18,918 nucleotides of DNA from assembly GCA_030748485.1 (NCBI GenBank), contig JASMLW010000598.1:1-18918 (forward strand). The letters run 5' to 3'. This document shows, in pieces, positions 1,457-18,163 of the stretch. A program made the translations under genes and the position numbers. The stretch's first letter is position 1; every line of letters starts with the position of its first letter. Below the pieces are notes generated by a model. That model saw only the letters and a program-made list of their open reading frames with translations, made no database searches and was not told the DNA's origin. Origin of the DNA: Pirellulaceae bacterium (GTDB lineage: Bacteria; Planctomycetota; Planctomycetia; Pirellulales; Pirellulaceae).

Positions 1457-4400
1457 CTACTTCGTCAAATAGGCGAACAAGTCGCGGATCTGCTGGGGCT
1501 GGAGTTTGTCGAGCGCATTGTCGGGCATCAGAGAGACAGGCGACTCGCGCAGCGTGGCGATGTCGCCGCGGCTCACTCGGGTGCGGCGATCTTCCGCGTC
1601 GACGATCGTAACGCTGGCCGCATCTTGAGCGGCGATCAGGCCTGTCAACACGCGACCGCCCGTCGTCTCGAGGATGTAATTGATGTACTGGCGTTTCACG
1701 ACGGCGCCCGGGTCGACGAGGTTGGCGAGCAATGCGGCCCGGTCTTTGCGGTTCGCCTGCGTCAAGTCGGGACCGATCTTGCCGCCCTCGCCAAACAACT
1801 GATGGCACGCGCCGCAGTTCTTCTTGAAGAGCTCCTTCCCTCGCGCCGCACTGCCGCCGCCGGCGCGAAGATCATTGTTGTAGCGCCGCATGGCGGCCAG
1901 CTTTGCCTCGGTGCTGCCGGAGCCAATCCTGCCCCAGTGCTTCTTGACGAGTTTGTCGATCCGCGGATCGCCGAACGCCGCCAGCACGCGCAGCTGCGCG
2001 ACAGGGATCGTGTCGGGCTTGATCGCGCCCGCGTCGACCAGTTCCAGTAGCCGCCGAGCCGACGCCGAGTTGCTCAACAATGCGCGGCGAGCGCTCGTTT
2101 GCACTGGCGGTGAGAAACGAGGGTAGTTTTCCAGCACCGCGTCCGACAGCGATTCGGACGGAAAACGACTCAGCGCGTCAAGCGCCGCCAGTTGTGTAGT
2201 CGCGTTTTCGTTTGGTGAAAGGAAACGAAGAAGCAACGGCGCTTCGTCTTTCGCAATGAAGCCGGCGGCGAGCCGCAGTGTCGTCTGTTTCTCCGCTTCG
2301 GATGGCAGTCTTTCGTCGGCAAGCCGCTGCAACAACAGGTCTCTCGCTTCTTCGACGCCACAGGTCAGCGCTAATCGCCAAGCCGGCGCATTCGTGGGTT
2401 GCGGTTTCCATTTCCCGTAGATGAACCGGCGCAGCGATCCGCTCACCCTTTTGAATTGCCGCTGTTGCGGGGTGGCGTCGCCAGTGGCGGCGGCGAAGTC
2501 GGCGAACAGCCCGCCCTGCCCGATCGTCGCCAACCCACTCGCCCGCTCGTCCAGTCCCAGTTGCAAGGCGGCCAACGCCGATCCTTGTTGATTCGCCGGC
2601 GCGAGACTCAATAACTTCGCGCAGGCGTCGTAGCCGGCCGCCGTGCCCTCGGCCGCATACCGGCGGATCAGTCGCCGCAGATTGCCGCGGTACGAAGCCC
2701 GCGACCACAGCGCCTTGTCGCCAAACTCGGCCAGCACTTCTTCTCGGTCACTGACCGACTTGCTCTCGATCGCCCACCACAGTAGCCACGCGATCCGTTC
2801 GTCGGCGTCGTCAATTCCGCGGTCGAGTAGTTCGGTGACGATTGCCAGGCCCGTCTCGGCCGGGAGTCGTTTTGCCGTAGCCGCTAACTGAGCTCGCACG
2901 ATCGCACTTGGTTCTTTCCTCGCCAGTCGCACCAGCGCCGCGGAGACTTCGGACGAAACCTGCTTTCGGTCGCCCAGCAATCGAACCGTCCAACTCCTCA
3001 CGTAAGGATAGGGATGCGACAAGCACTCCATTGCGAACGGATCGTCCAACTCGCCGCAAGCGTGCAGCGTCCACACGCCTTGCAGCGCATCGCGCGGCCG
3101 GTCGCGATTTGCGGCGAGAGCCTTGAGCCGCGGAGCGACCGATGCATCTCGACGTTCGGCTAAAAGCACTCTTGCTCGCGTGGCGAACCAACGATTGTTG
3201 TGGGTGAGTAAATCGACGAGTTGGTCGCTCGATTGTTTGCGGAGGTCGAGCGCCGCCGGTGAAGACCTGGCCGCGCTCAACTCGGCCGGCAACTCGGCCG
3301 ACGAGATCCGGTAGATGCGGCCGTTGCCGCGGTCCCAGCGAGCGTCGGGGTCGGGGTGCGCGGTGCGGCGATCGTAGAAGTCGCAGACGAAGATCGAACC
3401 GTCCGGCGCGATGCACAAGTCGGTCGGTCCCGACCAAGTGTCGCCGACATCCAGCAGCGGTCGCTCGTAGCTCGCCGCCACGGTCGCTCCCCGCGGCTCG
3501 ATTCGCCAAGACGAAACCGTGTGGCCGAGAAAGTTGCCGGCGATGAACTTTCCGCGGTACGACTTTCCCAACGCGTCGGCCGCGTAGATCGTGCCGCCCG
3601 TCGGTGGTCCCCCCGGAACCTGGTCGCGTTGCAGTGGCGCGAAATGATGGTAGGCGAACAGATTGTGCAATGGCCCGTGCTTGCCAAAGCTCTTGTAGTA
3701 GTAGCCGCCCTGCACGGCGTGCACGAACGGTCCGCCGTTTGTCGAGTAGAACAGGTTGCCGTCTTCATCGAATGTCAGACCGTACGTATTGCCGCCGCCC
3801 TCGCAGAACAACTCGAACTCACGACTTCGCGGATGGTATCGCCAGCAACCCTGTTGGAACTCGATTCCTCGGATGCGGCAGGTCGTCGTGCTGCCGTTGA
3901 CTCCGTAGAGCCAGCCGTCCGGACCCCATGTCAAATGATTGGCGAATGACTGCGCGTCTTCCATTCCAAACCCGCTGAGCAGCACATGGGGATCGCTGTC
4001 AGGCCGGTCGTCTCCGTCCGCGTCGGGATAGAAAAGCAGATAGGGAACTTGCAATACGAAAACTCCGCCATAGCCGAACTCGACCCCCGTGCAGAGGTTC
4101 AGTCCCGAGACAAAATCGGTAAACGTGTCAGCGCGGCCATCGCCGCTGCGGTCTTCGACGATCGTGATGCGGTCGGCTCCGCGAGGTCCGTGCGGCGGCG
4201 GTTTGGGCACGCGATCGTAGACGGTGCGCGACCAGCGATCGACTCTGACTCGTTTCAATCCGGCCGGGTTGGGGTATTGGAGATATTGAATCGTCCACAG
4301 CCGACCCCGATCGTCGAACTTGACGAAGATCGGTTGCCTGATATCCGGCTCATGAGCGAACAGTTGCGCGTGCAGCCCGGCGGCTGGACGGAGTGCTTTC

Positions 4401-4504
4401 GCCGCCGCGGCTGGGGCGTATCCTTGACCGCGAGCAACTCCGATTGCGGCAAAGAGAAGCGCGATCGCTGCAGATCCAAGGCGAGGCAAATTCATGAGCA
4501 GCAT
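1457..4504 (-). CDS. Planctomycete-type multidomain protein: signal peptide, PQQ/sugar-dehydrogenase-like beta-propeller ('membrane-bound dehydrogenase domain'), HEAT repeats, C-terminal mono-heme cytochrome c
   Basis: C-terminal NCGACHQLFGEGGKIGPDL (CxxCH) with a distal-Met region SLMPDN. Central HEAT-like helical repeats. N-terminal propeller motifs GPDGWLYGVNGS and APDGSIFVCDFYD. The ORF is open to 4849, but the likely true start is MLLMNLPRLGSAAIALLFAAIGVARG (ATG at 4504), which gives a signal peptide. A 4849 start would add 115 aa of R/S-rich low-complexity sequence. Confidence 0.75.
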   Translation of the reverse strand: MLLMNLPRLGSAAIALLFAAIGVARGQGYAPAAAAKALRPAAGLHAQLFAHEPDIRQPIFVKFDDRGRLWTIQYLQYPNPAGLKRVRVDRWSRTVYDRVPKPPPHGPRGADRITIVEDRSGDGRADTFTDFVSGLNLCTGVEFGYGGVFVLQVPYLLFYPDADGDDRPDSDPHVLLSGFGMEDAQSFANHLTWGPDGWLYGVNGSTTTCRIRGIEFQQGCWRYHPRSREFELFCEGGGNTYGLTFDEDGNLFYSTNGGPFVHAVQGGYYYKSFGKHGPLHNLFAYHHFAPLQRDQVPGGPPTGGTIYAADALGKSYRGKFIAGNFLGHTVSSWRIEPRGATVAASYERPLLDVGDTWSGPTDLCIAPDGSIFVCDFYDRRTAHPDPDARWDRGNGRIYRISSAELPAELSAARSSPAALDLRKQSSDQLVDLLTHNNRWFATRARVLLAERRDASVAPRLKALAANRDRPRDALQGVWTLHACGELDDPFAMECLSHPYPYVRSWTVRLLGDRKQVSSEVSAALVRLARKEPSAIVRAQLAATAKRLPAETGLAIVTELLDRGIDDADERIAWLLWWAIESKSVSDREEVLAEFGDKALWSRASYRGNLRRLIRRYAAEGTAAGYDACAKLLSLAPANQQGSALAALQLGLDERASGLATIGQGGLFADFAAATGDATPQQRQFKRVSGSLRRFIYGKWKPQPTNAPAWRLALTCGVEEARDLLLQRLADERLPSEAEKQTTLRLAAGFIAKDEAPLLLRFLSPNENATTQLAALDALSRFPSESLSDAVLENYPRFSPPVQTSARRALLSNSASARRLLELVDAGAIKPDTIPVAQLRVLAAFGDPRIDKLVKKHWGRIGSGSTEAKLAAMRRYNNDLRAGGGSAARGKELFKKNCGACHQLFGEGGKIGPDLTQANRKDRAALLANLVDPGAVVKRQYINYILETTGGRVLTGLIAAQDAASVTIVDAEDRRTRVSRGDIATLRESPVSLMPDNALDKLQPQQIRDLFAYLTK

Positions 4505-4751
4505 TGTAGCTGGCGTGTTGCAAGAGTGGAGATCGCGGCTGGATGTGAACTCCGAAGTCGTGCGAAGTCCAGGCTCCGCACTGACTTTGCGCGACCTGAA
4601 AGATCGCGCGCCCCGCGTTCCGGCGTTTTTCGCCCTTACTTCAACCTGATAGGCTATCGGCCTCGTCATTCGCATTTTGAAGCGTTGAGGATGCGGGGTT
4701 TCGCTCAATCGAACGTCTACTGAGCGGAAGCGCGCTTTGTGAGTGGCACTG

Positions 4752-4761
4752 CCACTAGTGG
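4752..4761. promoter_or_regulatory. Perfect 10-bp palindrome CCACTAGTGG (with flanking AGTGG..CCACT inverted arms) in the divergent control region upstream of the symporter gene
   Basis: Seen directly. A possible operator. No functional evidence. Confidence 0.2.
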
Positions 4762-4813
4762 GCTGATCAACAGCCGGGCAGCACGCGCCAGAATAGCCAG
4801 TGGAAGGACTCCT

Positions 4814-6442
4814 ATGAACTCTGACGAGAAACAGAACAACCACAGCCACCGTTTGACGATCGCCATCGTCGTCGCGATCGTGGCGGCCATTGGGCTAGCG
4901 ATCGTGGCGCCCCGGTTTGCCATGGGGTTTGAGGTCGGCGGGCAAGTGTTCCTGCGGCTGTTGCAGATGGTGGTCGTGCCGCTCGTGATGGCGAGCGTGA
5001 TGAGCGGCATTATTGGGCTCGGCGACGTCCGCAAACTTGGACGGCCAGGAGCCGCCGCGGTTTCCTACTACCTTTGCACGACGGTGTTTGCGGTCATCAC
5101 GGGGCTGATCGTTGTCAACATCATCAACCCGGGTGTCGGCATCGACAAAAAGCTGGTGGAGGATGCGCGCAAAGAGGGAGCTCGCGAAGTCAAACGCGCC
5201 CAAAGCGGACATGGGCCGCACGGGTTTCGCTTTGACGGCGGAATCCGCACTTACGCGACCACGGCCGTGGTCAGCGATACTCTCGAACTTCACGACGCCG
5301 ACGAATCAAAAGTCCGCATCCGCGTCGTCCACTCGCCGTCCGCCGACCAGGCAGCCCGCGTGTGGCTCGAGCACCGCGCCGACGAGGAGGAGGAGTGGGC
5401 GCGGGCGGGCGACCCGTTCACGGCGGAAACAGAGAACGCCGAGCACTCTTTCACCGCGACGGTGCCGGAGGGTGCGAAGGAGATCCGACTACATTTCGAA
5501 CCGGGTTCGCCTGGGTCAACTGTCGTAGCGGCCGAGCTGGAAGCGGGACCGCCAACGATTGGCGACATCTTCAAGAATCTCGTGCTGATGCTGTTCACCG
5601 ACAACCTGCTCGGCTCGATGGTCGGCATCAACCTACTGCCGTTGATCGTATTCAGTATTGTCTTCGCCGGGATGTTGACGACCATGGGCGCGAAGGCTCA
5701 GGTCATCTCCGACCTGGTGATCGGCATCAATGACGCGTTGTTGAATTTCATTTTGCTGTTGATGAAGCTGGCCCCGATTGGAATCTTCTGTTTGGTCGCG
5801 GCCCGCTTCGGCAAAGCCCAAGCAGACGGTCAGTTCCTCAAACTGCTGCAAGTTCAGTTTTACTACATGACGACAGTGCTGAGTGGGCTGGGTTTGCACG
5901 TCGTGATCACGTTGCCGCTGCTGCTGTGGATCTTCACGCGGCGGAACCCAATCAAGTTCGTCGTGCAGATGTCGCAAGCCGTGTTGACGGCGTTTTCGAC
6001 TGCCAGTTCCACGGCGACGCTACCGGTCACGATGGAATGCGCGGAGCGGAAAGCGGGCGTGTCGAAGCGGTCGACAGAGTTCGTGTTGCCGCTGGGCGCG
6101 ACAATCAACATGGACGGTACAGCGCTGTACGAGGCGGCGGCGGCGATTTTCATCGCCCAGTCGTACGCCGTGATCAATCCGGACTTCCAATTGACACTGA
6201 TGGCGCAAGCCACGATTGCCGTCACGGCGACGCTGGCCGCGATCGGAGCCGCCGGAATTCCCGAGGCGGGGCTGGTGACGATGCTCATCGTGCTCAACGC
6301 CGTCGGTCTGCCGATTGAGATGATCGGACTGATCTTGCCCGTCGACTGGTTGTTGGATCGTTTCCGCACGGCCGTCAACAATTTCGGCGATTCGGTGGGA
6401 GCGGCGATCGTCGATCAGACATTCCCTGAGGCGGCGGCCTAG
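4814..6442 (+). CDS. Dicarboxylate/amino-acid:cation symporter (DAACS / SLC1 / GltP-GltT family) with an atypical ~135-aa acidic insertion in the TM3-TM4 loop
   Basis: Family hallmarks VVPLVMASVMSGI, GATINMDGTALYEAAAAIFIAQ and AIGAAGIPEAGLVTM. ORF opens at 4739, but the start at 4814 is preferred (GGAAGGA RBS 7 nt upstream). Confidence 0.8.
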   Translation: MNSDEKQNNHSHRLTIAIVVAIVAAIGLAIVAPRFAMGFEVGGQVFLRLLQMVVVPLVMASVMSGIIGLGDVRKLGRPGAAAVSYYLCTTVFAVITGLIVVNIINPGVGIDKKLVEDARKEGAREVKRAQSGHGPHGFRFDGGIRTYATTAVVSDTLELHDADESKVRIRVVHSPSADQAARVWLEHRADEEEEWARAGDPFTAETENAEHSFTATVPEGAKEIRLHFEPGSPGSTVVAAELEAGPPTIGDIFKNLVLMLFTDNLLGSMVGINLLPLIVFSIVFAGMLTTMGAKAQVISDLVIGINDALLNFILLLMKLAPIGIFCLVAARFGKAQADGQFLKLLQVQFYYMTTVLSGLGLHVVITLPLLLWIFTRRNPIKFVVQMSQAVLTAFSTASSTATLPVTMECAERKAGVSKRSTEFVLPLGATINMDGTALYEAAAAIFIAQSYAVINPDFQLTLMAQATIAVTATLAAIGAAGIPEAGLVTMLIVLNAVGLPIEMIGLILPVDWLLDRFRTAVNNFGDSVGAAIVDQTFPEAAA

Positions 6443-6653: not shown

Positions 6654-7298
6654 GTGGAAGTAATTGAAACACTAACGACTGGCCCCAATCTTTTTGCATC
6701 CATCGTGATGGGTGTCGTGCTGATCTACTGGCTGATGGTGATCGCCGGCGCCGCTGATATCGAATTGTTTGATTTTGACATCGATATCGGCGCCGACGTT
6801 GATATCGATGGTGACATCGACGTCGGTTCGGCAACCAGCGTCGGTTTTGTTGTGCTACGTTTTCTCAACATTGGCCAAGTGCCGTTGGTCATTTGGGGCA
6901 GTGTGTTCGTGATCGGTTTTTGGATCAGTTCGCTCGCTTTTACGCTCTTTTTCGACGACCGGACTACGTACTCGGATTACACAACGGTGGCGTTGTACGT
7001 GTTGCGCAACTTCGCCATCGGCGTGTTCGGCGCGAAGTTGATTACCACTCCCATGGTTCCGTGGTTCGAGATCGACGAAGGACCGAAGCCGGAGGAGTTG
7101 GTCGGAAAGTCGTGCGAGGTGACGGCTCCGCTAAAAGCTGATAGCCGCGGACAAGCGAGTTTTCGGACGAACGCGGCGCCGCTGTTGATTCACGTGAGAT
7201 GTGAGAAAGACGAATTCCGCAAGGGCGACACCGCGCGGATTGTTGCATACGACGCAGAAACAAAGACCTACCTGATTGAATCGGTTCGCGAGGTATAA
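6654..7298 (+). CDS. NfeD-like (YqiJ / YuaF-type) membrane protein with a C-terminal OB-fold domain; flotillin operon partner
   Basis: 214 aa. Hydrophobic N-terminal helices. Acidic DIELFDFDIDIGADVDIDGDIDVG loop. Two to three TM segments, then a soluble C-terminal domain (KSCEVTAPLKADSRGQASFRTNAAPLLIHVRCEKDEFRKGDTARIVAYD) typical of the NfeD short form. Stop is 2 nt before the flotillin ATG. GTG start at 6654 (an alternative ATG lies at 6708). Confidence 0.6.
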   Translation: MEVIETLTTGPNLFASIVMGVVLIYWLMVIAGAADIELFDFDIDIGADVDIDGDIDVGSATSVGFVVLRFLNIGQVPLVIWGSVFVIGFWISSLAFTLFFDDRTTYSDYTTVALYVLRNFAIGVFGAKLITTPMVPWFEIDEGPKPEELVGKSCEVTAPLKADSRGQASFRTNAAPLLIHVRCEKDEFRKGDTARIVAYDAETKTYLIESVREV

Positions 7299-7300
7299 CC

Positions 7301-9427
7301 ATGGAAATCTTGATCTACATCGGCATTACGGTTGGCGCTATCGTCGTCATTCTCGGCGGCCTTGGAGTCGCGCTGGCTCGCTTCTACAAGAAGGTCGGGC
7401 CCGAAGAGGCGCTCGTCCGAGCCGGCACGGGGCAACTCAAGACCGTCACTGGCGGCGGTATGTGGGTCGTGCCCATCTTCCACCGTGTGGAGAACATGGA
7501 CCTGACTCTCAAGCGGATTGAGATCGCTCGCGATGGCCACGACGGTCTGGTCTGCAAAGACAACATTCGAGCCGATATCAAGGTCGCCTTCTTTGTTCGC
7601 GTCGACAAAGATCCCGACAAGATTAAAGAAGTCGCTCAGTCGATCGGCTGCACGCGAGCCTCGGATCACTCGACATTGGTCGACCTGTTTGACGCCAAGT
7701 TCTCCGAAGCGCTGAAGACGGTCGGTAAGTCATTCGACTTTGTGCAGCTTTACGAGGAACGCGATAACTTCAAAGGCGAAATCCTCAAAGTCATCGGCAC
7801 CGACCTAAACGGCTACGCGCTCGACGATTGTGCGATCGATTACCTCGAACAGACTCCGGTCGAGATGCTCAACCCGAGCAATATCCTCGACGCTGAAGGA
7901 ATCAAGAAGATCACCGCGCTGACGGCCAAAGAGAAGATGCTCGAGAACGAGATCACGCGGGAGAAAGAGAAGACGCTCAAGAAGCAGGACGTCGAAGCTC
8001 AGGAAGCCATCCTCGAACTCGAACGACAGCGAGTTGAAGCTGTCCAAAAGCAAGAGCGCGAGATCGCTACGATTACAGCTCGCGAAAAAGCCGAGGCTCG
8101 CAAGGTTGAGCAAGAGCAGACGCTGATCTCCGAACGAGCTCGAATCTCGACCGAAGAAGAAGTCGGCGTGGCGGAAGAAAACAAACAACGTCAAGTGCTT
8201 GTCGCCTTGCGGAACAAAGAACGCACCGATCAAGTCGAGTTGGAACGCGTGCAGCGCGACCGCGACTTGGAAATGACGGAACGCGTACGAGTCGTCTCGT
8301 TGGCCGACATCGACAAAGACAAGGCGATCGAAGTCGAGAAACGCAACATCCAGGAAGTCATTCGCGAACGCGTCGCCGTGGAAAGAGCCGTCGTCGAAGA
8401 GCAAGAGCGGATCAAGGACACGGAAGAGTTCGCCGGAGCCGATCGGGCTAAGCGAGTCACCGTGACCGCTGCTGAGATGACCGCCCAAGAGTCGTTGGTG
8501 AAGGAAGTCAAAGCCGCCGAAGCAGCCAAGACGTCGTCTGAACTGCTCGCCGAGAAGACTGTCATCGAAGCCGAAGCTGGGCGCAAGGCGGCCGAAAAAG
8601 AAACGCATGCGACCAAGATGTTGGCCGAAGCGGCTCAAGCAGAGAAAGCCGCGCCGGGATTGGCCGACGCACAAGTCCAGGTCGCCACCGCCGAGGCCAT
8701 CGAGAAGACCGGACTGGCCGAAGCGACCGTCACCGAGAAGACCGGTTTGGCCGAAGCCACCGTCATCGAAACGAAAGCCGTCGCCGAAGCCAAGGGAGAC
8801 GAAGCTAGAGCGGTTGCGATCGAAAAGACTGGTTACGCCGAAGCCACCGTCATGCAACAGAAGTTCAGCAGCGAAGCGACGGGTATCCAAGAGAAGGCCG
8901 AAGCGATGAAGTTGTTCGACGGCGTTGGCCGCGAGCACGAAGAGTTCAAACTGCGGCTGAACAAAGATAAGGACATTGAAATCGCCGCCATCGGCGCCCA
9001 GCAAGAGATCGCGGAAGCTCAGGCGGGCATCGTCGGCGAGGCTGTCAAGCAGGCTCGCATCGACATCGTGGGCGGCGATTCGCAGTTCTTCGACCAGATT
9101 ATCAACGCGGTCAAGGGCGGCAAAGCGGTCGATCGCTTCGTGCACAACAGCGAAACGCTGACGGACATGAAGAACACGTTCTTCAACGGTAATCCGGAGT
9201 ACTTCCGCGATAAGTTGCAGGACCTGGTCGGGCAGTTCGACTTGAGCACCGACGATATCAAAGATCTCTCCATCGCGGCGCTGATCGCCAAAATGATGGG
9301 GCTGACCAACAGCGATGAAGTTCGCGGCGAACTCCGCCGGCTCGCCGAGATGGCGCAAAGCGTCGGACTGGCTGGCTCGAACTTCTCGTCCCTACGGCTC
9401 GGTTCAACAGAGAAGAGCAACTCTTAG
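7301..9427 (+). CDS. Flotillin-family SPFH (band-7) protein (FloT / YqiK-like) with an extended coiled-coil and EA-repeat region
   Basis: N-terminal TM helix IYIGITVGAIVVILGGLGVAL, then YKKVGPEEALVRAGTG and an SPFH core. Long E/K/R coiled-coil. C-terminal Ala/Glu 'EA' repeats EKTGLAEATVTEKTGLAEATVIETKAVAEAKGDEARAVAIEKTGYAEATV alignable to B. subtilis FloT, plus the conserved C-terminal flotillin tail. GAGGT RBS. The in-frame repeats appear as ~33-bp DNA repeats at 8697-8850. Confidence 0.85.
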   Translation: MEILIYIGITVGAIVVILGGLGVALARFYKKVGPEEALVRAGTGQLKTVTGGGMWVVPIFHRVENMDLTLKRIEIARDGHDGLVCKDNIRADIKVAFFVRVDKDPDKIKEVAQSIGCTRASDHSTLVDLFDAKFSEALKTVGKSFDFVQLYEERDNFKGEILKVIGTDLNGYALDDCAIDYLEQTPVEMLNPSNILDAEGIKKITALTAKEKMLENEITREKEKTLKKQDVEAQEAILELERQRVEAVQKQEREIATITAREKAEARKVEQEQTLISERARISTEEEVGVAEENKQRQVLVALRNKERTDQVELERVQRDRDLEMTERVRVVSLADIDKDKAIEVEKRNIQEVIRERVAVERAVVEEQERIKDTEEFAGADRAKRVTVTAAEMTAQESLVKEVKAAEAAKTSSELLAEKTVIEAEAGRKAAEKETHATKMLAEAAQAEKAAPGLADAQVQVATAEAIEKTGLAEATVTEKTGLAEATVIETKAVAEAKGDEARAVAIEKTGYAEATVMQQKFSSEATGIQEKAEAMKLFDGVGREHEEFKLRLNKDKDIEIAAIGAQQEIAEAQAGIVGEAVKQARIDIVGGDSQFFDQIINAVKGGKAVDRFVHNSETLTDMKNTFFNGNPEYFRDKLQDLVGQFDLSTDDIKDLSIAALIAKMMGLTNSDEVRGELRRLAEMAQSVGLAGSNFSSLRLGSTEKSNS

Positions 9428-9442
9428 TAACCCATGAGGCTG

Positions 9443-9470
9443 GGCGGCGAGCCGCGATTAGCTCGCCGCC
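9443..9470 (+). other. Strong intercistronic stem-loop (10-bp perfect GC-rich stem, 8-nt loop) 16 nt after the flotillin stop. No U-tract.
   Basis: GGCGGCGAGC-cgcgatta-GCTCGCCGCC. Candidate partial terminator or mRNA stability/processing element that would set flotillin versus giant-ATPase stoichiometry. Confidence 0.5.
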
Positions 9471-9532
9471 TGACGCCGGTTCCGCACTGCGGCGACGACT
9501 GGCGGCCACCTCACGGGTGAAGGAACGGAGCC

Positions 9533-12500
9533 ATGGCAGAAGCCACCACAACAGACGCCGCGCCTGAGGCGCAACTTGAAGGCGGCGCATACGAGATCAT
9601 TCGCAATCGACTTGTCACACAAGGCAAGGAGTTGCGAGATCGGTTGCACCAACTGAACGACGCCCGCAAGGCCGTCTTCGGCGCAATCGACACCGAATTG
9701 CTCGGCACCGACCGGATCTCGACCAACCACAATTGCACGCCCCGCGACATGGTGGCGATCGGCGATCGCTTCATCTTTGGATACAACGTTCAGTTCGGCC
9801 TCAAGTCCGAGATCTCGCTGGCCGACGTCTTCGCCGTTTACGAGTATCGCGATCGAGGTTTTCACGAACAGCCGCTCGAGTTTATTCAGGTCGGCAACTT
9901 CGAGCGAGATTTCAAAGAGATCTACCGCTACTACAAGAATGCGACGTTCGCCAAGTTCTTTTTGACGGGCCCTTATCTCTTCATGGTGTTTCAGGTCGGA
10001 CGCGACAGCACCGACATCAAGGCGCTGAAGTTCCTGATCAATGACGATACTCTGACGTATCTCGACAATCGCAGCGATCACGAGGTTAAATACCCGTCGC
10101 AGCACGAGTTCGAATGGACCCGGACGACTCGCGATCAGCACCGACACGGCGCGCACCCCCACATCTCGCTTCACGATCGTGTGTTCGTCGAGACGGTTGG
10201 CGGCGACCTGACGATCAAAGTCGAGAACAACACGCAGTCCGGCGAAGGCATCTACGCCGAGGATGTCGAACATACGGATCAGACTCTCGACGACGCCGAG
10301 ATCTACTACGCGATCGTCGGCAATCTGATCTTGATGAAGATTCGCCCCTATCAGGAAGAGGCGTTTCGCTACATCGTCTTCAACGAGAAGACACAGCAAG
10401 CTCGGCGCATCGACGCCATCGCCGACGCTTGCGTCTTGCTGCCGGACGATCACGGGTTGATCTTCTCGCGCGGCTACTACTTGCAAACCGGCGAATTCAA
10501 GACGTTTGAGAGTGACGTTACTGAAATGCTGTTTGAACGCCGGCTGGCGGCGTCGAACGGCGAAGACTACATGTATGTCTTCTACAATCACCAGCTCGGC
10601 GTTTACGTCCTACTGACGTACAACGTGATCGAACAGCGAGTCGAGACGCCGATTATCGTGCACGGCTTCACGCTGTTCGACAGCGGCGAAATGGTCTGCT
10701 TTAAATCGCAGGACGAACCACAGAAACACCACGCGATTCAGATTTGGAAGACGCCGTATGTCGGCGAGGGGTTCGAGACCCACGAGGAGACGGATTCCTA
10801 TATTTACAAGATCGGCAACCGCGATCTCGTCCGCGGCATGGCCGAGTGCTACGAAGTTCTCTCCCTGATCGACAAAGAGGACACCTACGCCGGGTTGTAC
10901 GTCGATCTGGTGAAGAAGACCGGCGACATCATCGACTCGTACTTCTGGATCGACTCGACCGAGACGCATCGGCCGGCGGAAGTGCTCGGCCAGATTCGCG
11001 GAGCCGCTGAGTCGGCGGTCGAAGAGTTCGAAAAGGTCGTCCGGCTCAAACAAAACACGCTCGGCGAAACCAAACGAGTACAGCAGCACTGCCAGGAGAT
11101 CATGGCCGAGCTGCACCGCAAGCGATTCGAGCACATTCTCGAGTTCGTCCAATCGCTCGGCGACCTGCGAGCCGCCCGCGGCGACATTATCTCGCTCCGC
11201 GAGTTGCGCTACATCGACGGCGGCCTCGTCGACAAGCTGGAGGAAGACGTCGCGGAGAACGCCGAGAAACTCGCGCAACGCTGCGTCGAGTTCCTGTTGC
11301 GCGACGACTCGTTGGCTCCCTACGTCGCAAAGGTCGCCGAACAGCGCGGCCGCATCGACGGCCTGGAAAAAGTCAGCGAGGCGAAGGAGCTGGAGGAGGA
11401 GATCGCCTCCAGCGCCGGTGAACTCGAGATGCTGATCGACATCGTCAGCAACCTGAAGATCGACGACGCCACGCAGCGAACGGCGATCATCGACAGCATT
11501 TCTGGAATCTTCGCGGGAGTGAACCAGGCGCGGTCGGCGCTGAAGAACAAGACCAAAGAACTCGCTTCGGTCGAAGGCGTCGCCGAATTCAATTCACAAC
11601 TGAAGCTGCTCAATCAAAGCGTCGTCAACTATCTCGACGTTTGCGACTCCCCCACCAAGTGCGAAGAGTTCCTCACCAAGATGATGGTGCAGCTGGAGGA
11701 GCTCGAGGGCCGCTTCGCCGAGTTCGACGAGTTCGTGGTGCAGCTGACCGACAAACGCGAGGAGATCTACAACGCGTTTGAGTCGCGGAAGCTGGCGCTG
11801 GTCGAAGCTCGTAACAAGCGAGCCACCTCGCTGATGAGCGCGGCGAATCGGATCTTGAAAGGCATCAAGACTCGCGTCGACAACATGGAGTCGATCAACG
11901 ACATCAACGGGTACTTTGCATCCGATTTGATGATCGAAAAGGTTCGCGATCTGTGTGAAGAGCTCAAGGAACTCGACGATTCGGTCAAGGTCGACGACAT
12001 CCAGAGCCGGATGAAGTCGGTTCGCGAGGACGCCGTCCGCCAGCTCAAAGATCGACAGGATCTGTTTGTCGGCGGCGAGAATGTCATCAAGTTCGGCAAC
12101 CACCAATTCAATGTCAACGTCCAGGCTCTCGACTTGACGATGGTGTTGCGTGACGGCGAGATGAACTTGCATCTGACCGGCACGAATCTGTTTGAGCCGA
12201 TTGAGAATGAGGAGCTGATCTCGCTGCGCGAGGTTTGGGATCAGGAAGTCGTCAGCGAGAACAAGAGTGTCTATCGGGCTGAGTACTTGGCGTACTTGAT
12301 GTTGCGGGCCGTCCGCGGCGACGAATTCGATCAGTCGGCCGCGCAGATACTGAAGCTCACTCCTGACGAGCGTGTCGCGATGGTTCAGCGCTTCATGGGG
12401 CCGCGGTACAGCGAGGCGTACGTGAAAGGCGTCTCCGATCACGACGCCGCGTTGCTGCTCGGCTCACTGCTCGAGATGGATCAAACGATCGGCATGTTGC

Positions 12501-14932
12501 GCTACCACGCCCGCGCTCGCGCCATTGCCGCCGCGTTTTGGAATTGGTTCGCCGATCCTGAATGGCGCGAGCTAATGGGAGCCCGGCTGAGAGGATTGGG
12601 CAGGATCACGGACCTGTTCCCCGATGCTCGCGAGCGACAGAAATATATCGATTCGATTCGCGCCGCGATCGGCGACTACAACGCGCAATCGAAAATGTTC
12701 GACGATGAATTCATCGACGAAGCGGCGACCTATCTCTGCCACGAGCTAAGCGATCGGGACCACTTTACCGTGAGTCGCAATGCGGCGACGCTCCGCGACG
12801 AATTCCAAGGGCATCTCAAACACGCCGGCCACGCTGAGGCGTTCGCCCACTCGGTCGCCGAAGTCCGCGAAGACGCGGCCAGTTGGTTCACGCTGGTGCG
12901 TGACTGGGCGTCGGCGTTTATTGAAAGACGCGAGGCGCGAGAAGACGATCTCGACTACGTCGACGAACTGGCCGTGCTCTTGATGCGCGAGCAAGTGGAT
13001 GTGGGACACATTGTCGATGGCGATGTCGCCAAGGCGATCGGTGGCATGTCGGGAGCTCACGGGGTCATCGAAGGCGGCCAATATCAGCTGCACTTCAATC
13101 ACTTCCTGCAAAAGCTACACGAGTACGAACGAGTTACCGCGCCGAGGTTTCAGCGGTACATCGAATTGAAGAAAGAGATCGTCGAGGAAGGTCGCCAGGG
13201 AATGCGGCTCGACGAGTTCCGTCCCCGCGTGCTCACGTCGTTCGTCCGCAACAAACTGATCGATTCGGTCTACCTGCCGCTCGTGGGCGACAATCTAGCC
13301 AAGCAGATGGGCGTCGCCGGCGAGCAGAAGCGGACGGACTTGATGGGCCTGCTGCTGCTCATCTCACCGCCCGGGTACGGTAAGACGACGCTGATGGAGT
13401 ACATCGCCAATCGACTCGGCCTGATCTTCATGAAGATCAACGGCCCGGCGATTGGGCATCACGTGACATCGCTCGATCCCGTCGAAGCTCCCAACGCCGG
13501 AGCGCGGGAAGAGGTCATGAAGCTGAATCTCTCTCTCGAGATGGGCGATAACGTGATGATCTATCTCGACGATATTCAACACTGCAATCCGGAGTTCCTG
13601 CAGAAGTTCATCTCGCTCTGCGATGCGCAGCGTAAGATCGAAGGCGTCTATAAGGGCAAAACGCGGACCTACGACCTGCGAGGTCGAAAGGTCGCCGTTG
13701 TCATGGCCGGCAACCCCTACACGGAGAGCGGCGAGAAGTTCCAGATCCCCGACATGCTTTCGAACCGGGCCGATATCTACAACCTGGGCGAGATCATCGG
13801 CGATTCGGCGGACGCCTTCGAGATGAGTTACCTGGAGAACTCGTTGACGTCCAACCCGGCGCTCAACAAGCTCGCCTCGCGAAGCCAGCAAGATGTCTAC
13901 GGAGTGATTCAGATCGCCGAGCGCGACAGTCGCGAAGGCGTCGATCTCGAAGGCAACTACTCGCTCGAAGAGGTCGATGAATTCGTTCGCGTCATGAAGA
14001 AGCTGTTCCGCGTCCGCGACGTCGTGCTGCGCGTGAACCGGCAGTATATCGAGTCGGCCGCGCAGGCGGACGAGTATCGCACCGAGCCGCCGTTCCTGCT
14101 TCAGGGATCGTATCGAAACATGAACCGCATCGCCGAAAAAGTGGTGCCGATCATGAACGATGAAGAGCTGGAGTCTCTGATCCTGAGCAACTACGAGAAC
14201 GACGCCCAGACGTTGACATCCAATACTGAGTCGAACCTGCTCAAGTTGCGCGAGATGCTGAGTATTCTGACCAAGGAAGAGGAACGGCGGTGGGAGGACA
14301 TCAGACGGACGTTCTCGCAGAACGTCAAACTCAAAGGCGTCGGCGCCGACGACCAATTCGGTCAGGTCATCGTGCAGCTCAGTTCGTTCAGCGACGGGCT
14401 CGACTCCTTGCGGCGCGCTGTCGCTGACGGCGTCGAACGGCTGGCCGAGCAAGACGACGAAGGGAAGTCGGTCGAAGTTGTCGTCGGCGAGCTGAGCGGA
14501 CTGCGAGAAGGGCTCACCGCCATCAAGGGCGCGCTTGAACAGGCGGGAACGGACGAGGCGATCGGCGCGCTGGCCGCTCAACTTCGCGAAGCCGTTCCTG
14601 TCCCCGCGCTCCCCGCTGCGTTGGCGGAACCGGTTCCCAGCGAGCCATTTCCCGTCGAGCTGGCGCGCAATGAGACGACGGAAATGCACCGCATCACCGT
14701 CCAGCACAAAGTGCCGCGCAGCATCCTGGATGTCGTCCGCACGCAGTTCGAAGTCATGGAGGGTTGGATGAGTCCGCTGCTGAGCACAGCCAAGGAAAAC
14801 TCGGCTGGCATCACCCAACTTCGCAACTCGGTCGACGAGTGCCTGCGCAGCTACGCGCTGTTGCTGAGCGAACTCGAAAGCGCGAAGCCCTTGAAAAAGG
14901 CGAAGAAGACGACCAAGAAGAAACGCAGCTAG
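9533..14932 (+). CDS. Giant (1,799 aa) soluble protein: N-terminal beta-rich region (~430 aa), ~800-aa coiled-coil/helical region, a single AAA_5 (MoxR / midasin / dynein-type) ATPase module, a helical C-terminal region and a polybasic tail
   Basis: A 5.4-kb ORF cannot occur by chance at this GC content. Walker A LLLISPPGYGKTTL (nt ~13365-13390), Walker B VMIYLDDIQH (~13553-13580), AAA_5-type sensor VVMAGNPYTESGEKFQIPDMLSNRADIYNLG (~13700-13790). No TM segments. C-terminal tail AKPLKKAKKTTKKKRS. RBS AAGGAACGGAG. Confidence 0.85.
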   Translation: MAEATTTDAAPEAQLEGGAYEIIRNRLVTQGKELRDRLHQLNDARKAVFGAIDTELLGTDRISTNHNCTPRDMVAIGDRFIFGYNVQFGLKSEISLADVFAVYEYRDRGFHEQPLEFIQVGNFERDFKEIYRYYKNATFAKFFLTGPYLFMVFQVGRDSTDIKALKFLINDDTLTYLDNRSDHEVKYPSQHEFEWTRTTRDQHRHGAHPHISLHDRVFVETVGGDLTIKVENNTQSGEGIYAEDVEHTDQTLDDAEIYYAIVGNLILMKIRPYQEEAFRYIVFNEKTQQARRIDAIADACVLLPDDHGLIFSRGYYLQTGEFKTFESDVTEMLFERRLAASNGEDYMYVFYNHQLGVYVLLTYNVIEQRVETPIIVHGFTLFDSGEMVCFKSQDEPQKHHAIQIWKTPYVGEGFETHEETDSYIYKIGNRDLVRGMAECYEVLSLIDKEDTYAGLYVDLVKKTGDIIDSYFWIDSTETHRPAEVLGQIRGAAESAVEEFEKVVRLKQNTLGETKRVQQHCQEIMAELHRKRFEHILEFVQSLGDLRAARGDIISLRELRYIDGGLVDKLEEDVAENAEKLAQRCVEFLLRDDSLAPYVAKVAEQRGRIDGLEKVSEAKELEEEIASSAGELEMLIDIVSNLKIDDATQRTAIIDSISGIFAGVNQARSALKNKTKELASVEGVAEFNSQLKLLNQSVVNYLDVCDSPTKCEEFLTKMMVQLEELEGRFAEFDEFVVQLTDKREEIYNAFESRKLALVEARNKRATSLMSAANRILKGIKTRVDNMESINDINGYFASDLMIEKVRDLCEELKELDDSVKVDDIQSRMKSVREDAVRQLKDRQDLFVGGENVIKFGNHQFNVNVQALDLTMVLRDGEMNLHLTGTNLFEPIENEELISLREVWDQEVVSENKSVYRAEYLAYLMLRAVRGDEFDQSAAQILKLTPDERVAMVQRFMGPRYSEAYVKGVSDHDAALLLGSLLEMDQTIGMLRYHARARAIAAAFWNWFADPEWRELMGARLRGLGRITDLFPDARERQKYIDSIRAAIGDYNAQSKMFDDEFIDEAATYLCHELSDRDHFTVSRNAATLRDEFQGHLKHAGHAEAFAHSVAEVREDAASWFTLVRDWASAFIERREAREDDLDYVDELAVLLMREQVDVGHIVDGDVAKAIGGMSGAHGVIEGGQYQLHFNHFLQKLHEYERVTAPRFQRYIELKKEIVEEGRQGMRLDEFRPRVLTSFVRNKLIDSVYLPLVGDNLAKQMGVAGEQKRTDLMGLLLLISPPGYGKTTLMEYIANRLGLIFMKINGPAIGHHVTSLDPVEAPNAGAREEVMKLNLSLEMGDNVMIYLDDIQHCNPEFLQKFISLCDAQRKIEGVYKGKTRTYDLRGRKVAVVMAGNPYTESGEKFQIPDMLSNRADIYNLGEIIGDSADAFEMSYLENSLTSNPALNKLASRSQQDVYGVIQIAERDSREGVDLEGNYSLEEVDEFVRVMKKLFRVRDVVLRVNRQYIESAAQADEYRTEPPFLLQGSYRNMNRIAEKVVPIMNDEELESLILSNYENDAQTLTSNTESNLLKLREMLSILTKEEERRWEDIRRTFSQNVKLKGVGADDQFGQVIVQLSSFSDGLDSLRRAVADGVERLAEQDDEGKSVEVVVGELSGLREGLTAIKGALEQAGTDEAIGALAAQLREAVPVPALPAALAEPVPSEPFPVELARNETTEMHRITVQHKVPRSILDVVRTQFEVMEGWMSPLLSTAKENSAGITQLRNSVDECLRSYALLLSELESAKPLKKAKKTTKKKRS

Positions 14933-16315: not shown

Positions 16316-18163
16316 TTACTCTCCTTTGGCGTCCAGTTTGTTGTAGAGGGTGCCGCGGCCGATCTCGAGAATGCGGCAGGCTTTGGTCTTGTTCCCGCCC
16401 ACTTGTTCGAGCACGTAGTGGATGTGCCTCCGCTCGGCCTCGCGCACCGACATCAGTTGCGGTGTCGGATTGGTGTCGCGCTGGTGGACGGGCATCCCCA
16501 GATCCTCCACCGTCACTTCATCGCCGCGGCCGAGCACGATCGCCCGCTCGATGGCGTTCCGCAACTCACGAACGTTGCCAGGCCAGCGATAACTGCGGAT
16601 TCCCTCGACCGCTTCGCGTGAAAACCGCTGGGGTCCGCGTCCCAACTGCGCGCGGAAGTGCTCCAGGAACAACGACGCCAGTTCAATGACGTCGTCGGCG
16701 CGCTCGCGGAGCGGCGGCATCTGGATGTCGATCACGCGGAGACGAAAGTAGAGGTCCTCGCGAAACTCCTTTTGACCGACGAGTTCAACGAGATCTCGGT
16801 GAGTTGCGGCGACGACGCGGACGTCGACCTTGATCGACTCCTCGCCGCCGAGCCGCTGAAAGGGGTGTCCCTCGAGTATCCGCAGCAACTTGGCCTGACA
16901 CGCCAGGCTCATCTCCCCCACTTCGTCCAGGAAGATCGTCCCGCGATGAGCTCGCTCGAATTGTCCGATGTGCCGGCGGTCGGCTCCAGTGAACGTGCCC
17001 ACTTCGTGCCCAAACAACTCGCTCTCCAACAACGACTCGCTAAAGGCGGCGCAGTTGACCGTCACGTAGGGTCCGTCTTTTCGTTCGCTGAGCTCGTGGA
17101 TCGATTGCGCGACCAACTCCTTGCCGGTGCCGCTTTCGCCCAAGACCAGCACGTTCGAACTGGTCGGACCGACGCGGGCGACTTGATCGAGCACGCGTTG
17201 CATCGCTTCGCTCGAGCCCGCCATTTGCGACTTCGAGTCGAGCCGGCGCTTGAGTTCCTCGTTCGCCTGCTCCAAACGCTCGCGATGCTCGACGTTCTCC
17301 AGCGCCGCTCCCATTTGGTGGGCGACGACGACGGCGAAGTCGAGATCGCTGCGAGCAAACGGATCTCGCTCCGGCTGCCGATGGCACTCGATCGCTCCCC
17401 GCACACTCGAACGGCCGGGAATCGGCACGCCGATGCCCGTTCCAACTGACAGAGGCGCGTCAGTGACCGTTTGGTCCTCGCTCCCCTGCGGCTTGTCGAT
17501 CAAGATCGCCTTGTCCTGCTCGACCGCCAGACTCGCCAACACATGCTCGTCGCGCGACTTGCCCCACGACGCGGCGCAACGCAACCGTCCGTCGGTGCCC
17601 GCCAACCAGATCGAGACCGCGTCGGGATCGACGCCGTCGACCAGTGCGTCCAAGGCGCAGCGGACCAACTCCGCCGGCGCCTGTGACTCGTGAAGCAGAT
17701 TGGCGACCCGGCAGAGAACGGCCGAATCTCGGACCACCCGCGATGCGCTGCGGCCCATCTTCTGTTCAACTAGTTTCGAGTGCGGGTCGTCGATCGGCAG
17801 CCGACCCATCATCGTCGTCGGGTGCAGCAATTCGGGCTTGAGAGAACTCGGCTCCTCGCCACCGGAACTCTCCGCAAACAGAATCAAGTGGTCGCCGATG
17901 CGCACCAGGTCCCCCGCCTCCAGCGTCCCCTGTTTGATCGGCTGTGTGTTGACAAAGGTGCCGTTCAAGCTGTCGGCGTCCCGCAGGTGCCAGCTCCCCG
18001 AACGATGGAAAATCTCCGCGTGCAGACGGCTCGCGCGGTCGTCGTCCAGAGGCAGATCACGCGTCGGATGGCGGCCGATCGTGACCGGATCCGGTCGCTC
18101 GGGGTCCAGACGCAACGTCGTCCCCGGATAGGCGCCGTTGAGCAACACAAGTGACCACGACAT
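16316..18163 (-). CDS. Sigma54-dependent transcriptional activator (bacterial enhancer-binding protein) with an N-terminal FHA domain, a central GAF-like domain, an AAA+ sigma54-interaction domain and a C-terminal Fis-type HTH
   Basis: FHA region TIGRHPTRDLPLDDDRASRLHAEIFHRSGSWHLRDADSLNGTFVN. AAA+ region VLVLGESGTGKELVAQ ... ESELFGHEVGTFTGA (GAFTGA variant) ... IFLDEVGEMS ... RVVAATHRDL. HTH region GGNKTKACRILEIGRGTLYNKL. GGGAGG RBS before the ATG at 18163. Confidence 0.9.
   Translation of the reverse strand: MSWSLVLLNGAYPGTTLRLDPERPDPVTIGRHPTRDLPLDDDRASRLHAEIFHRSGSWHLRDADSLNGTFVNTQPIKQGTLEAGDLVRIGDHLILFAESSGGEEPSSLKPELLHPTTMMGRLPIDDPHSKLVEQKMGRSASRVVRDSAVLCRVANLLHESQAPAELVRCALDALVDGVDPDAVSIWLAGTDGRLRCAASWGKSRDEHVLASLAVEQDKAILIDKPQGSEDQTVTDAPLSVGTGIGVPIPGRSSVRGAIECHRQPERDPFARSDLDFAVVVAHQMGAALENVEHRERLEQANEELKRRLDSKSQMAGSSEAMQRVLDQVARVGPTSSNVLVLGESGTGKELVAQSIHELSERKDGPYVTVNCAAFSESLLESELFGHEVGTFTGADRRHIGQFERAHRGTIFLDEVGEMSLACQAKLLRILEGHPFQRLGGEESIKVDVRVVAATHRDLVELVGQKEFREDLYFRLRVIDIQMPPLRERADDVIELASLFLEHFRAQLGRGPQRFSREAVEGIRSYRWPGNVRELRNAIERAIVLGRGDEVTVEDLGMPVHQRDTNPTPQLMSVREAERRHIHYVLEQVGGNKTKACRILEIGRGTLYNKLDAKGE

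Follow-up and report, generated by a model that had tools for sequence, protein, structure and literature searches.

In the present study, a three-gene module was characterised in an 18,918-nucleotide stretch of DNA from a Pirellulaceae bacterium (contig JASMLW010000598.1 of assembly GCA_030748485.1; the whole stretch is hereafter called the window). The third gene, a single unbroken reading frame of 1,799 codons, encodes a giant AAA+ ATPase, and the two genes preceding it on the same strand encode an inner-membrane protein of the YqiJ/NfeD type and a flotillin of the YqiK type. The ATPase is best explained as the ATPase subunit of a membrane module formed by these three genes (yqiJ/nfeD-like, yqiK/flotillin-like and the giant ATPase). 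The module comprises the following features:

6654..7298, + strand: YqiJ/NfeD-type (DUF1449) inner-membrane protein, first gene (Pfam YqiJ_N)
7301..9427, + strand: YqiK-type flotillin, second gene (profile comparison with Escherichia coli YqiK)
9428..9532, + strand: intergenic spacer of 105 nucleotides (nt) with a stable GC-rich RNA hairpin
9533..14932, + strand: giant AAA+ ATPase, third gene of the module (open reading frame, 1,799 amino acids)

Family, domain anatomy and class of the ATPase

The protein itself is not new. NCBI lists an identical sequence (MDP7020242.1) under the name "DNA repair ATPase"; it comes from a Pirellulaceae metagenome-assembled genome and bears the JGI label "MoxR-like ATPase". 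The family already has a Pfam definition and a mention in the literature. DUF3686 (PF12458) matched with 623.4 bits against a cut-off of 25 (E 2.3e-187), its complete profile (positions 1-448 of 448) lying on amino acids 33-471, and DUF7902 (PF25472) matched inside the helical region with 98.9 bits against a cut-off of 26 (E 2e-28). More than 4,000 database proteins match the ATPase at E < 1e-10, and the best 120 homologues are colinear across 89-100% of the query with 59-69% identity; therefore, the gene is no chance open reading frame. In a scan of 1.84 billion representative proteins, 772 clusters at 50% identity carried this beta-rich N-domain, it always stood at the N-terminus, and the complete proteins were 1,600-1,900 residues long. 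The family is present in at least ten phyla, and the window ATPase is a typical, ordinary member of this DUF3686, DUF7902 and AAA family, differing from the others solely in a lineage-variable C-terminal extension and a basic tail. An earlier note, made from the letters of this DNA alone, had been unable to place the protein in a named bacterial family; the matches assign it, along its full length, to the family above, and its operon appears in a published survey discussed below.

Two AlphaFold2 models, covering amino acids 1-880 (model 1) and 841-1799 (model 2), were obtained on a 102-sequence alignment, each with a mean predicted local distance difference test score (pLDDT) of 81.8. The parts of the protein and its catalytic motifs are as follows:

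9587..9679, + strand: N-terminal helix, amino acids 19-49 (AlphaFold model)
9695..10750, + strand: beta-rich, propeller-like domain, amino acids 55-406, with the DUF3686 core
10799..12064, + strand: spectrin-like helical-repeat region, amino acids 423-844, including DUF7902 (amino acids 592-676)
12083..12199, + strand: small beta-hairpin element, amino acids 851-889 (model 2; low confidence in model 1)
12275..12985, + strand: compact all-alpha globular domain, amino acids 915-1151 (model 2, pLDDT mostly above 90)
13028..13204, + strand: beta element and long helix before the ATPase, amino acids 1166-1224 (model 2)
13349..13783, + strand: AAA+ alpha/beta core, amino acids 1273-1417
13364..13390, + strand: Walker A, with K1284
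13568..13582, + strand: Walker B, D1346-D1347
Amino acids 1368-1381: predicted pre-sensor-1 beta-hairpin (model 2; strands 1368-1373 and 1376-1381, between helix 3 and strand 4)
13706..13732, + strand: sensor-1, N1394
Residue R1412: putative arginine finger
13784..14332, + strand: lid and extended helical region, amino acids 1418-1600, highly conserved (model 2)
14354..14881, + strand: lineage-variable C-terminal helices and disordered linker, amino acids 1608-1783
14882..14929, + strand: polybasic tail, amino acids 1784-1799, not conserved (disordered in the model)

In the model, amino acids 55-406 are nearly all beta-strand with a pLDDT of about 85, the structural matches found for this domain with Foldseek are beta-propeller proteins only, and internal repeats were not found by self-comparison of its profile. 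Phenylalanine, tryptophan and tyrosine make up 12.8% of the first ~430 amino acids compared with 7.7% of amino acids 431-1230, so that composition and model alike bear out the description of this part in the earlier note as aromatic and beta-rich; plausibly, the domain is a recognition module. The same note had described a heptad-rich coiled-coil rod of ~800 amino acids between residues 430 and 1230. This rod dissolves in the models into about 420 amino acids of broken helical repeats, beta-hairpins and the all-alpha domain: amino acids 423-844 contain at least twelve helices of 10-58 residues each with loops between them, and among the nine long helices scored the heptad periodicity is merely modest (z 0.4-2.2 compared with shuffles). 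The all-alpha domain at amino acids 915-1151 gave no Pfam match and no recognised family. Behind the AAA+ core, the lid region has a conservation of 0.65-0.87 among close homologues and is kept across phyla, and amino acids 1608-1783 have a low conservation of 0.22-0.47, with pLDDT below 50 at amino acids 1675-1728 in model 2. The members from Bacteroidota and Firmicutes stop at about residue 1630, ~170 residues short, and do not have the C-terminal helices. The polybasic C-tail that had been singled out is present here (nine lysines or arginines among the last 17 residues) but does not characterise the family: of 120 close homologues, 36 have six or more such residues among the last 20, and of 72 wider ones, 13 do. 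Because a minority of homologues have the tail and the Bacteroidota and Firmicutes proteins end near residue 1630, it is a local peculiarity, and it was rejected as a functional feature.

A pattern search of the whole protein revealed one P-loop, SPPGYGKTT at amino acids 1278-1286, and no second G..GK[ST] motif, in agreement with the earlier reading of a single P-loop in 1,799 amino acids; DDIQH (at amino acid 1346) and AGNPYTESG (at 1392) lie where they had been placed, and IPDMLSNRADIYNLG is found at 1405. The stretch "AGNP...G..F.IPD.L.NRA" is presumably the MoxR-type pattern running from sensor-1 to the arginine finger. In 27 genomes from seven phyla, K1284, D1346, D1347, N1394 and R1412 are invariant and the ATPase module is 62-80% identical to that of the window, which argues for an active, strongly constrained enzyme.

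Regarding the class of the module, Pfam AAA_5 scored 23.2 bits against a cut-off of 22, a small margin, over profile positions 2-127 of 139. The matches of PF00004 and of PDB sequences (p97, Rix7 and RuvB type) span the P-loop strand and helix only, and no match to classical AAA proteins (PF00004; p97, Vps4, FtsH) across the core including the second region of homology was found. When the predicted ATPase module was compared with known structures, the highest scores were those of the MoxR proteins CbbQ (16.8, with 240 of 267 residues aligned) and NorQ (15.3), followed by the AAA_5-related motors midasin (14.0) and dynein (13.7), and other clades (ClpA/ClpB, Lon, p97, Vps4, FtsH) scored 13.6 or less. 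Because CbbQ and NorQ match best and AAA_5 lies above its cut-off, the assignment to the AAA_5 group, which the earlier note had preferred to classical AAA, is supported, and the predicted module can, with caveats, be regarded as MoxR-class. It shares with MoxR ATPases (CbbQ, NorQ, RavA; AAA_5) the NP sensor-1 motif, a predicted pre-sensor-1 beta-hairpin and an arginine finger whose xxR motif follows a conserved P-D/E-x-L. It differs from them in the ~1,270 residues of N-terminal domains ahead of the module, in its Walker B of DD and in having no VWA/MIDAS partner. In the model, strand 2 is joined to helix 2 by a loop of 18 residues that includes a four-residue helix, and a helix-2 insert hairpin is not visible. 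In addition, the Walker A context (PPGxGKT ... INGP) resembles that of classical AAA proteins such as p97.

Gene neighbourhood and the longer operon

The product of the first gene matched YqiJ_N at 2.4e-5 (24.9 bits against a cut-off of 23), is named "DUF1449 family protein" by NCBI and is colinear with E. coli YqiJ (BLASTP E 0.001). The second gene encodes a protein with an N-terminal transmembrane helix, an SPFH domain, a long coiled coil rich in glutamate, alanine and lysine, and a C-terminal domain, and NCBI gives an identical protein the name "flotillin family protein". No Pfam match of its own was found for this protein, and against PDB sequences neither a single-sequence nor a profile search went beyond a weak match to the coiled coil of QmcA. 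Its homology was established by one comparison only, that of its family profile with E. coli YqiK (probability 100 and E 1.5e-39 by hhalign, 32% identity, 390 columns). A very strong AT skew (+0.28 to +0.40) in the region 7500-9500 reflects the long Glu/Ala/Lys-rich segment of this gene. The yqiJ-yqiK pair of E. coli consists of homologues of both upstream genes in the same order; however, in E. coli K-12 yqiK is followed by sibD/ibsD and not by a gene of the ATPase kind, and the flotillin of the window is 155 residues longer than YqiK.

Within the window, 2 nt separate the yqiJ-type gene from the flotillin gene and 105 nt separate the latter from the ATPase gene. A one-genome-per-species scan yielded at least 568 relatives, and 80 loci were examined, 62 of which had enough upstream DNA. 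In 59 of these 62 loci, a flotillin gene on the same strand directly precedes the ATPase gene, so that the link to flotillin implied in the earlier note is strongly supported by gene order. For a YqiJ/NfeD-like gene ahead of the flotillin gene, tblastn gave 47 of 60 loci and clustering gave 50. The loci belong to Planctomycetota, Verrucomicrobiota, Kiritimatiellota, Bacteroidota, Desulfobacterota, Hydrogenedentota and Firmicutes. Matches in a plasmid collection add Gammaproteobacteria (Proteus, Vibrio, Photobacterium, Halomonas and Pseudomonas pQBR103), Actinomycetota and Deinococcota, and the same triad was present wherever checked among them (Pseudomonas pQBR103, Deinococcus, Proteus). Among the loci examined, no neighbour besides flotillin, NfeD, PspA and CesT was conserved, nor was any downstream gene.

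The spacer between the flotillin and ATPase genes folds into a very stable structure with a minimum free energy of -53.9 kcal/mol, better than all of 200 shuffles (z -3.8). The core of the fold, at about 9442-9471, is a GC-rich hairpin of 11 bp that no T-run follows. This RNA structure could be an element of intercistronic processing, stability or translation control. A promoter and terminator scan gave sites no more frequent than in shuffled sequence. In some Bacteroidota loci (L022, 6131-7217; L045, 5662-6186; L064, 6911-7420), the flotillin and ATPase genes are parted by unrelated inserted cargo, namely DMP19 and DUF3997 proteins, an IS200-type transposase and a DUF559 endonuclease, and translational coupling of the two genes is therefore not a necessity.

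Further genes are added to the triad at several loci. PspA_IM30 was observed in 15 Bacteroidota loci and pQBR103, and CesT_Tir_1 in 11; in these 11-15 Bacteroidota loci, a CesT/Tir-like chaperone and PspA precede the operon together with an XRE-type regulator, and some loci add a PLD-family gene. The CesT/Tir-PspA dyad is absent from the window, in which the gene upstream of the triad encodes a sodium:dicarboxylate symporter, and the window carries the short three-gene form of a longer operon. On plasmid pQBR103 of Pseudomonas fluorescens SBW25 (locus L081, 84437-97641), a ten-gene cluster unites both types of PspA operon, starting with YjfI family, PspA/IM30, rhomboid protease, DUF2491, DUF350 and DUF1190 proteins, continuing with a glutathionylspermidine-synthase-like protein and a hypothetical protein at the place of NfeD, and ending with an SPFH protein and a "DNA repair ATPase". 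Since pQBR103 is a well-studied megaplasmid, this cluster is a convenient experimental system.

According to the cited literature, PspA belongs to the ESCRT-III superfamily and repairs membranes. An independent computational survey of PspA neighbourhoods (Ravi et al. 2024, mSystems, PMC11237479) gave the operon as [quoted passage not shown], noted that the abbreviated operon without PspA is widespread, and proposed ATP-dependent assembly and remodelling of sub-membrane complexes. The gene order is that of the window, the domain architecture appears to agree with the one predicted here, and the extended operon of that survey has PspA, CesT/Tir and phospholipase D, three components that the window does not carry. 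The published account is one sentence, with no structure or experiment; compared with it, the models obtained herein predict an irregular propeller-like domain and spectrin-like repeats rather than a plain coiled coil, together with an extra all-alpha domain and an AAA module of the MoxR class rather than a classical one.

Proposed function and alternative explanations

To our knowledge, the role, assembly and turnover of bacterial flotillins are still debated, and we know of no energy-consuming partner for them. Herein, based on the near-obligate linkage to flotillin and NfeD and the recurrent addition of PspA, we favour, with moderate confidence, the hypothesis that a ring of the ATPase, powered by ATP, builds up, takes apart or recycles either the flotillin scaffold or the polymers that the scaffold recruits, in membrane maintenance or stress repair. 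We infer the oligomeric state, the contact with flotillin, the remodelled partner and the physiological role as follows. By analogy with its structural MoxR relatives, which form rings, the single MoxR-class module of each chain probably assembles into a ring, likely a hexamer, and each subunit of the ring would project a spectrin-like arm, the helical repeats serving as spacer or arm, capped by the propeller-like head. The N-terminal beta domain might dock on the cytoplasmic flotillin (SPFH) oligomer or on PspA polymers recruited to this oligomer, and ATP turnover by the ring would drive the assembly, disassembly or turnover of the flotillin-NfeD scaffold in membrane maintenance or stress, an action that may be likened to that of Vps4 on ESCRT-III. 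With Vps4/ESCRT-III and FtsH/HflKC the proposed system would share the concept of an AAA+ ring coupled, genetically or physically, to a polymeric membrane scaffold, either of the ESCRT-III/PspA superfamily or an SPFH cage; however, the window ATPase has neither the MIT domain nor the protease domain, and the likeness would be a functional analogy. Only tentatively do we extend the hypothesis to say that the family might be the first dedicated ATP-driven assembly or disassembly factor for bacterial flotillin scaffolds, a counterpart of Vps4 by function and not by ancestry, in which the propeller-like head and spectrin-like arms of the ring would grip and remodel flotillin/NfeD cages, and PspA polymers where present.

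Several observations weigh against the remodelling of flotillin scaffolds. In three of the 62 loci (L014, L037 and L058), the ATPase gene has no adjacent flotillin-like gene, and gene linkage does not reveal which protein is the substrate. MoxR-class ATPases are usually paired with a VWA/MIDAS partner, and no VWA/MIDAS protein was found in the window or among the conserved neighbours. The Walker B motif is DD rather than DE, so that hydrolysis could be slow or regulatory, and an aromatic pore loop is not evident in the ATPase, so that nothing points to threading of the Vps4 kind. Finally, no experimental study of any family member was found in the literature under DUF3686, PF12458, "DNA repair ATPase" with flotillin, or YqiK with YqiJ. 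The ATPase is also unmentioned in a paper on SPFH evolution and in a paper on the SPFH proteins of P. aeruginosa.

CbbQ is a Rubisco activase and NorQ serves the maturation of nitric-oxide reductase, both being MoxR proteins that remodel specific clients. Their place as the closest structural neighbours of the module raises the alternative that the ATPase is a client chaperone, which remodels or matures specific membrane-protein complexes that the flotillin/NfeD scaffold merely concentrates. The propeller-like and compact alpha domains could bind such clients, and bacterial flotillins have been reported (PMC11222466) to confine and stabilise other proteins. Nevertheless, the scaffold proteins themselves are the sole invariant partners, none of the conserved neighbours is a candidate for the client, and a VWA adaptor of the CbbO or NorD kind is missing, so that we regard this explanation as rather unlikely. 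A miniature mechanoenzyme resembling dynein or midasin, of which the earlier note was reminded and in which the helical region would be a rigid linker that swings with the ATPase cycle and so applies force to a bound target, overlaps with the remodelling of scaffolds that we prefer and is suggested by the position of the helical region and alpha domain N-terminal to the ATPase, as is the linker of those motors. Such a motor appears quite improbable, because dynein and midasin carry six AAA modules in cis whereas each chain here has one, from which it follows that a ring would carry six arms; moreover, simple MoxR hexamers score above dynein and midasin in structure matching, the helices are short and broken by loops instead of forming one rigid rod, and no microtubule-binding-like or MIDAS element was detected in the protein.

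A role in biological conflict, with the triad as a horizontally mobile anti-phage or abortive-infection system whose propeller senses infection and whose SPFH protein is the route by which the membrane is acted on, might account for the patchy spread over many phyla, the copies on megaplasmids (pQBR103, Deinococcus, Streptomyces, Hymenobacter), the mobile cargo inside some operons (IS200-type transposase, DUF559 endonuclease) and the combinations of MoxR with beta-propellers in described conflict systems, after which the Pfam family bpMoxR is named. We consider it very improbable: the window ATPase has no bpMoxR match, its sole PADLOC match, to IetA across 30 P-loop residues (E 9e-4), was rejected as meaningless, and no copy was found in 50,697 phage records. 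Furthermore, the flanking genes are ordinary metabolic genes with no conserved defence-island neighbours, and the AAA module is 58-80% identical across phyla, unlike fast-evolving defence genes. The annotation by NCBI and Pfam, under which DNA would be the target of the protein and the basic tail a DNA-binding element, is scarcely credible. It draws on the name "ATPase involved in DNA repair" or "DNA repair ATPase" carried by PF12458 and homologues, on weak P-loop matches to RuvB and on the polybasic C-terminus of the window member; yet the RuvB equivalog models reach 21-24 bits against cut-offs of 282-299 and cover ~50 residues round the P-loop only, and most homologues do not have the basic tail. 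The fold is that of AAA+ and not of ABC/SMC proteins, no DNA-binding, nuclease or SMC/RecN-type domain was detected, and the neighbours are membrane proteins and never repair genes. No paper supporting the name was found, and the name seems to derive from the Pfam description alone. This name, which has spread over thousands of entries with no support from sequence, structure or gene context, is probably a misnomer.

With ~770 clusters in at least ten phyla, nearly always beside a YqiK-type flotillin, the family is a testable candidate for an energy-consuming partner of flotillins, and among its carriers are experimentally tractable ones such as Proteus mirabilis and Pseudomonas fluorescens with plasmid pQBR103. 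The family is a good experimental entry point to the function of bacterial flotillins.

Other genes in the window

Four further genes were observed around the module:

1457-4849, - strand: PVC-type haem-binding protein of 1,130 amino acids, with DUF7133, HEAT repeats and a C-terminal CxxCH cytochrome c domain
4739-6442, + strand: sodium:dicarboxylate symporter, an open reading frame of 567 amino acids
15020-15931, + strand: short formamidase/acetamidase-family protein of 303 amino acids, downstream of the module (partial profile match)
16316-18163, - strand: sigma-54 activator with an unusual FHA, GAF, AAA and Fis-HTH layout

The first of these proteins is typical of Planctomycetota and Verrucomicrobiota, in keeping with a planctomycete source of the DNA. 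The best-scoring match of the symporter begins at residue 277, and the start of this reading frame may therefore be over-called. The sigma-54 activator lies 1.4 kb downstream of the module on the opposite strand, and as matches resembling sigma-54 activators occur near the module in just two other loci (L011 and L027), it is probably unrelated to it.

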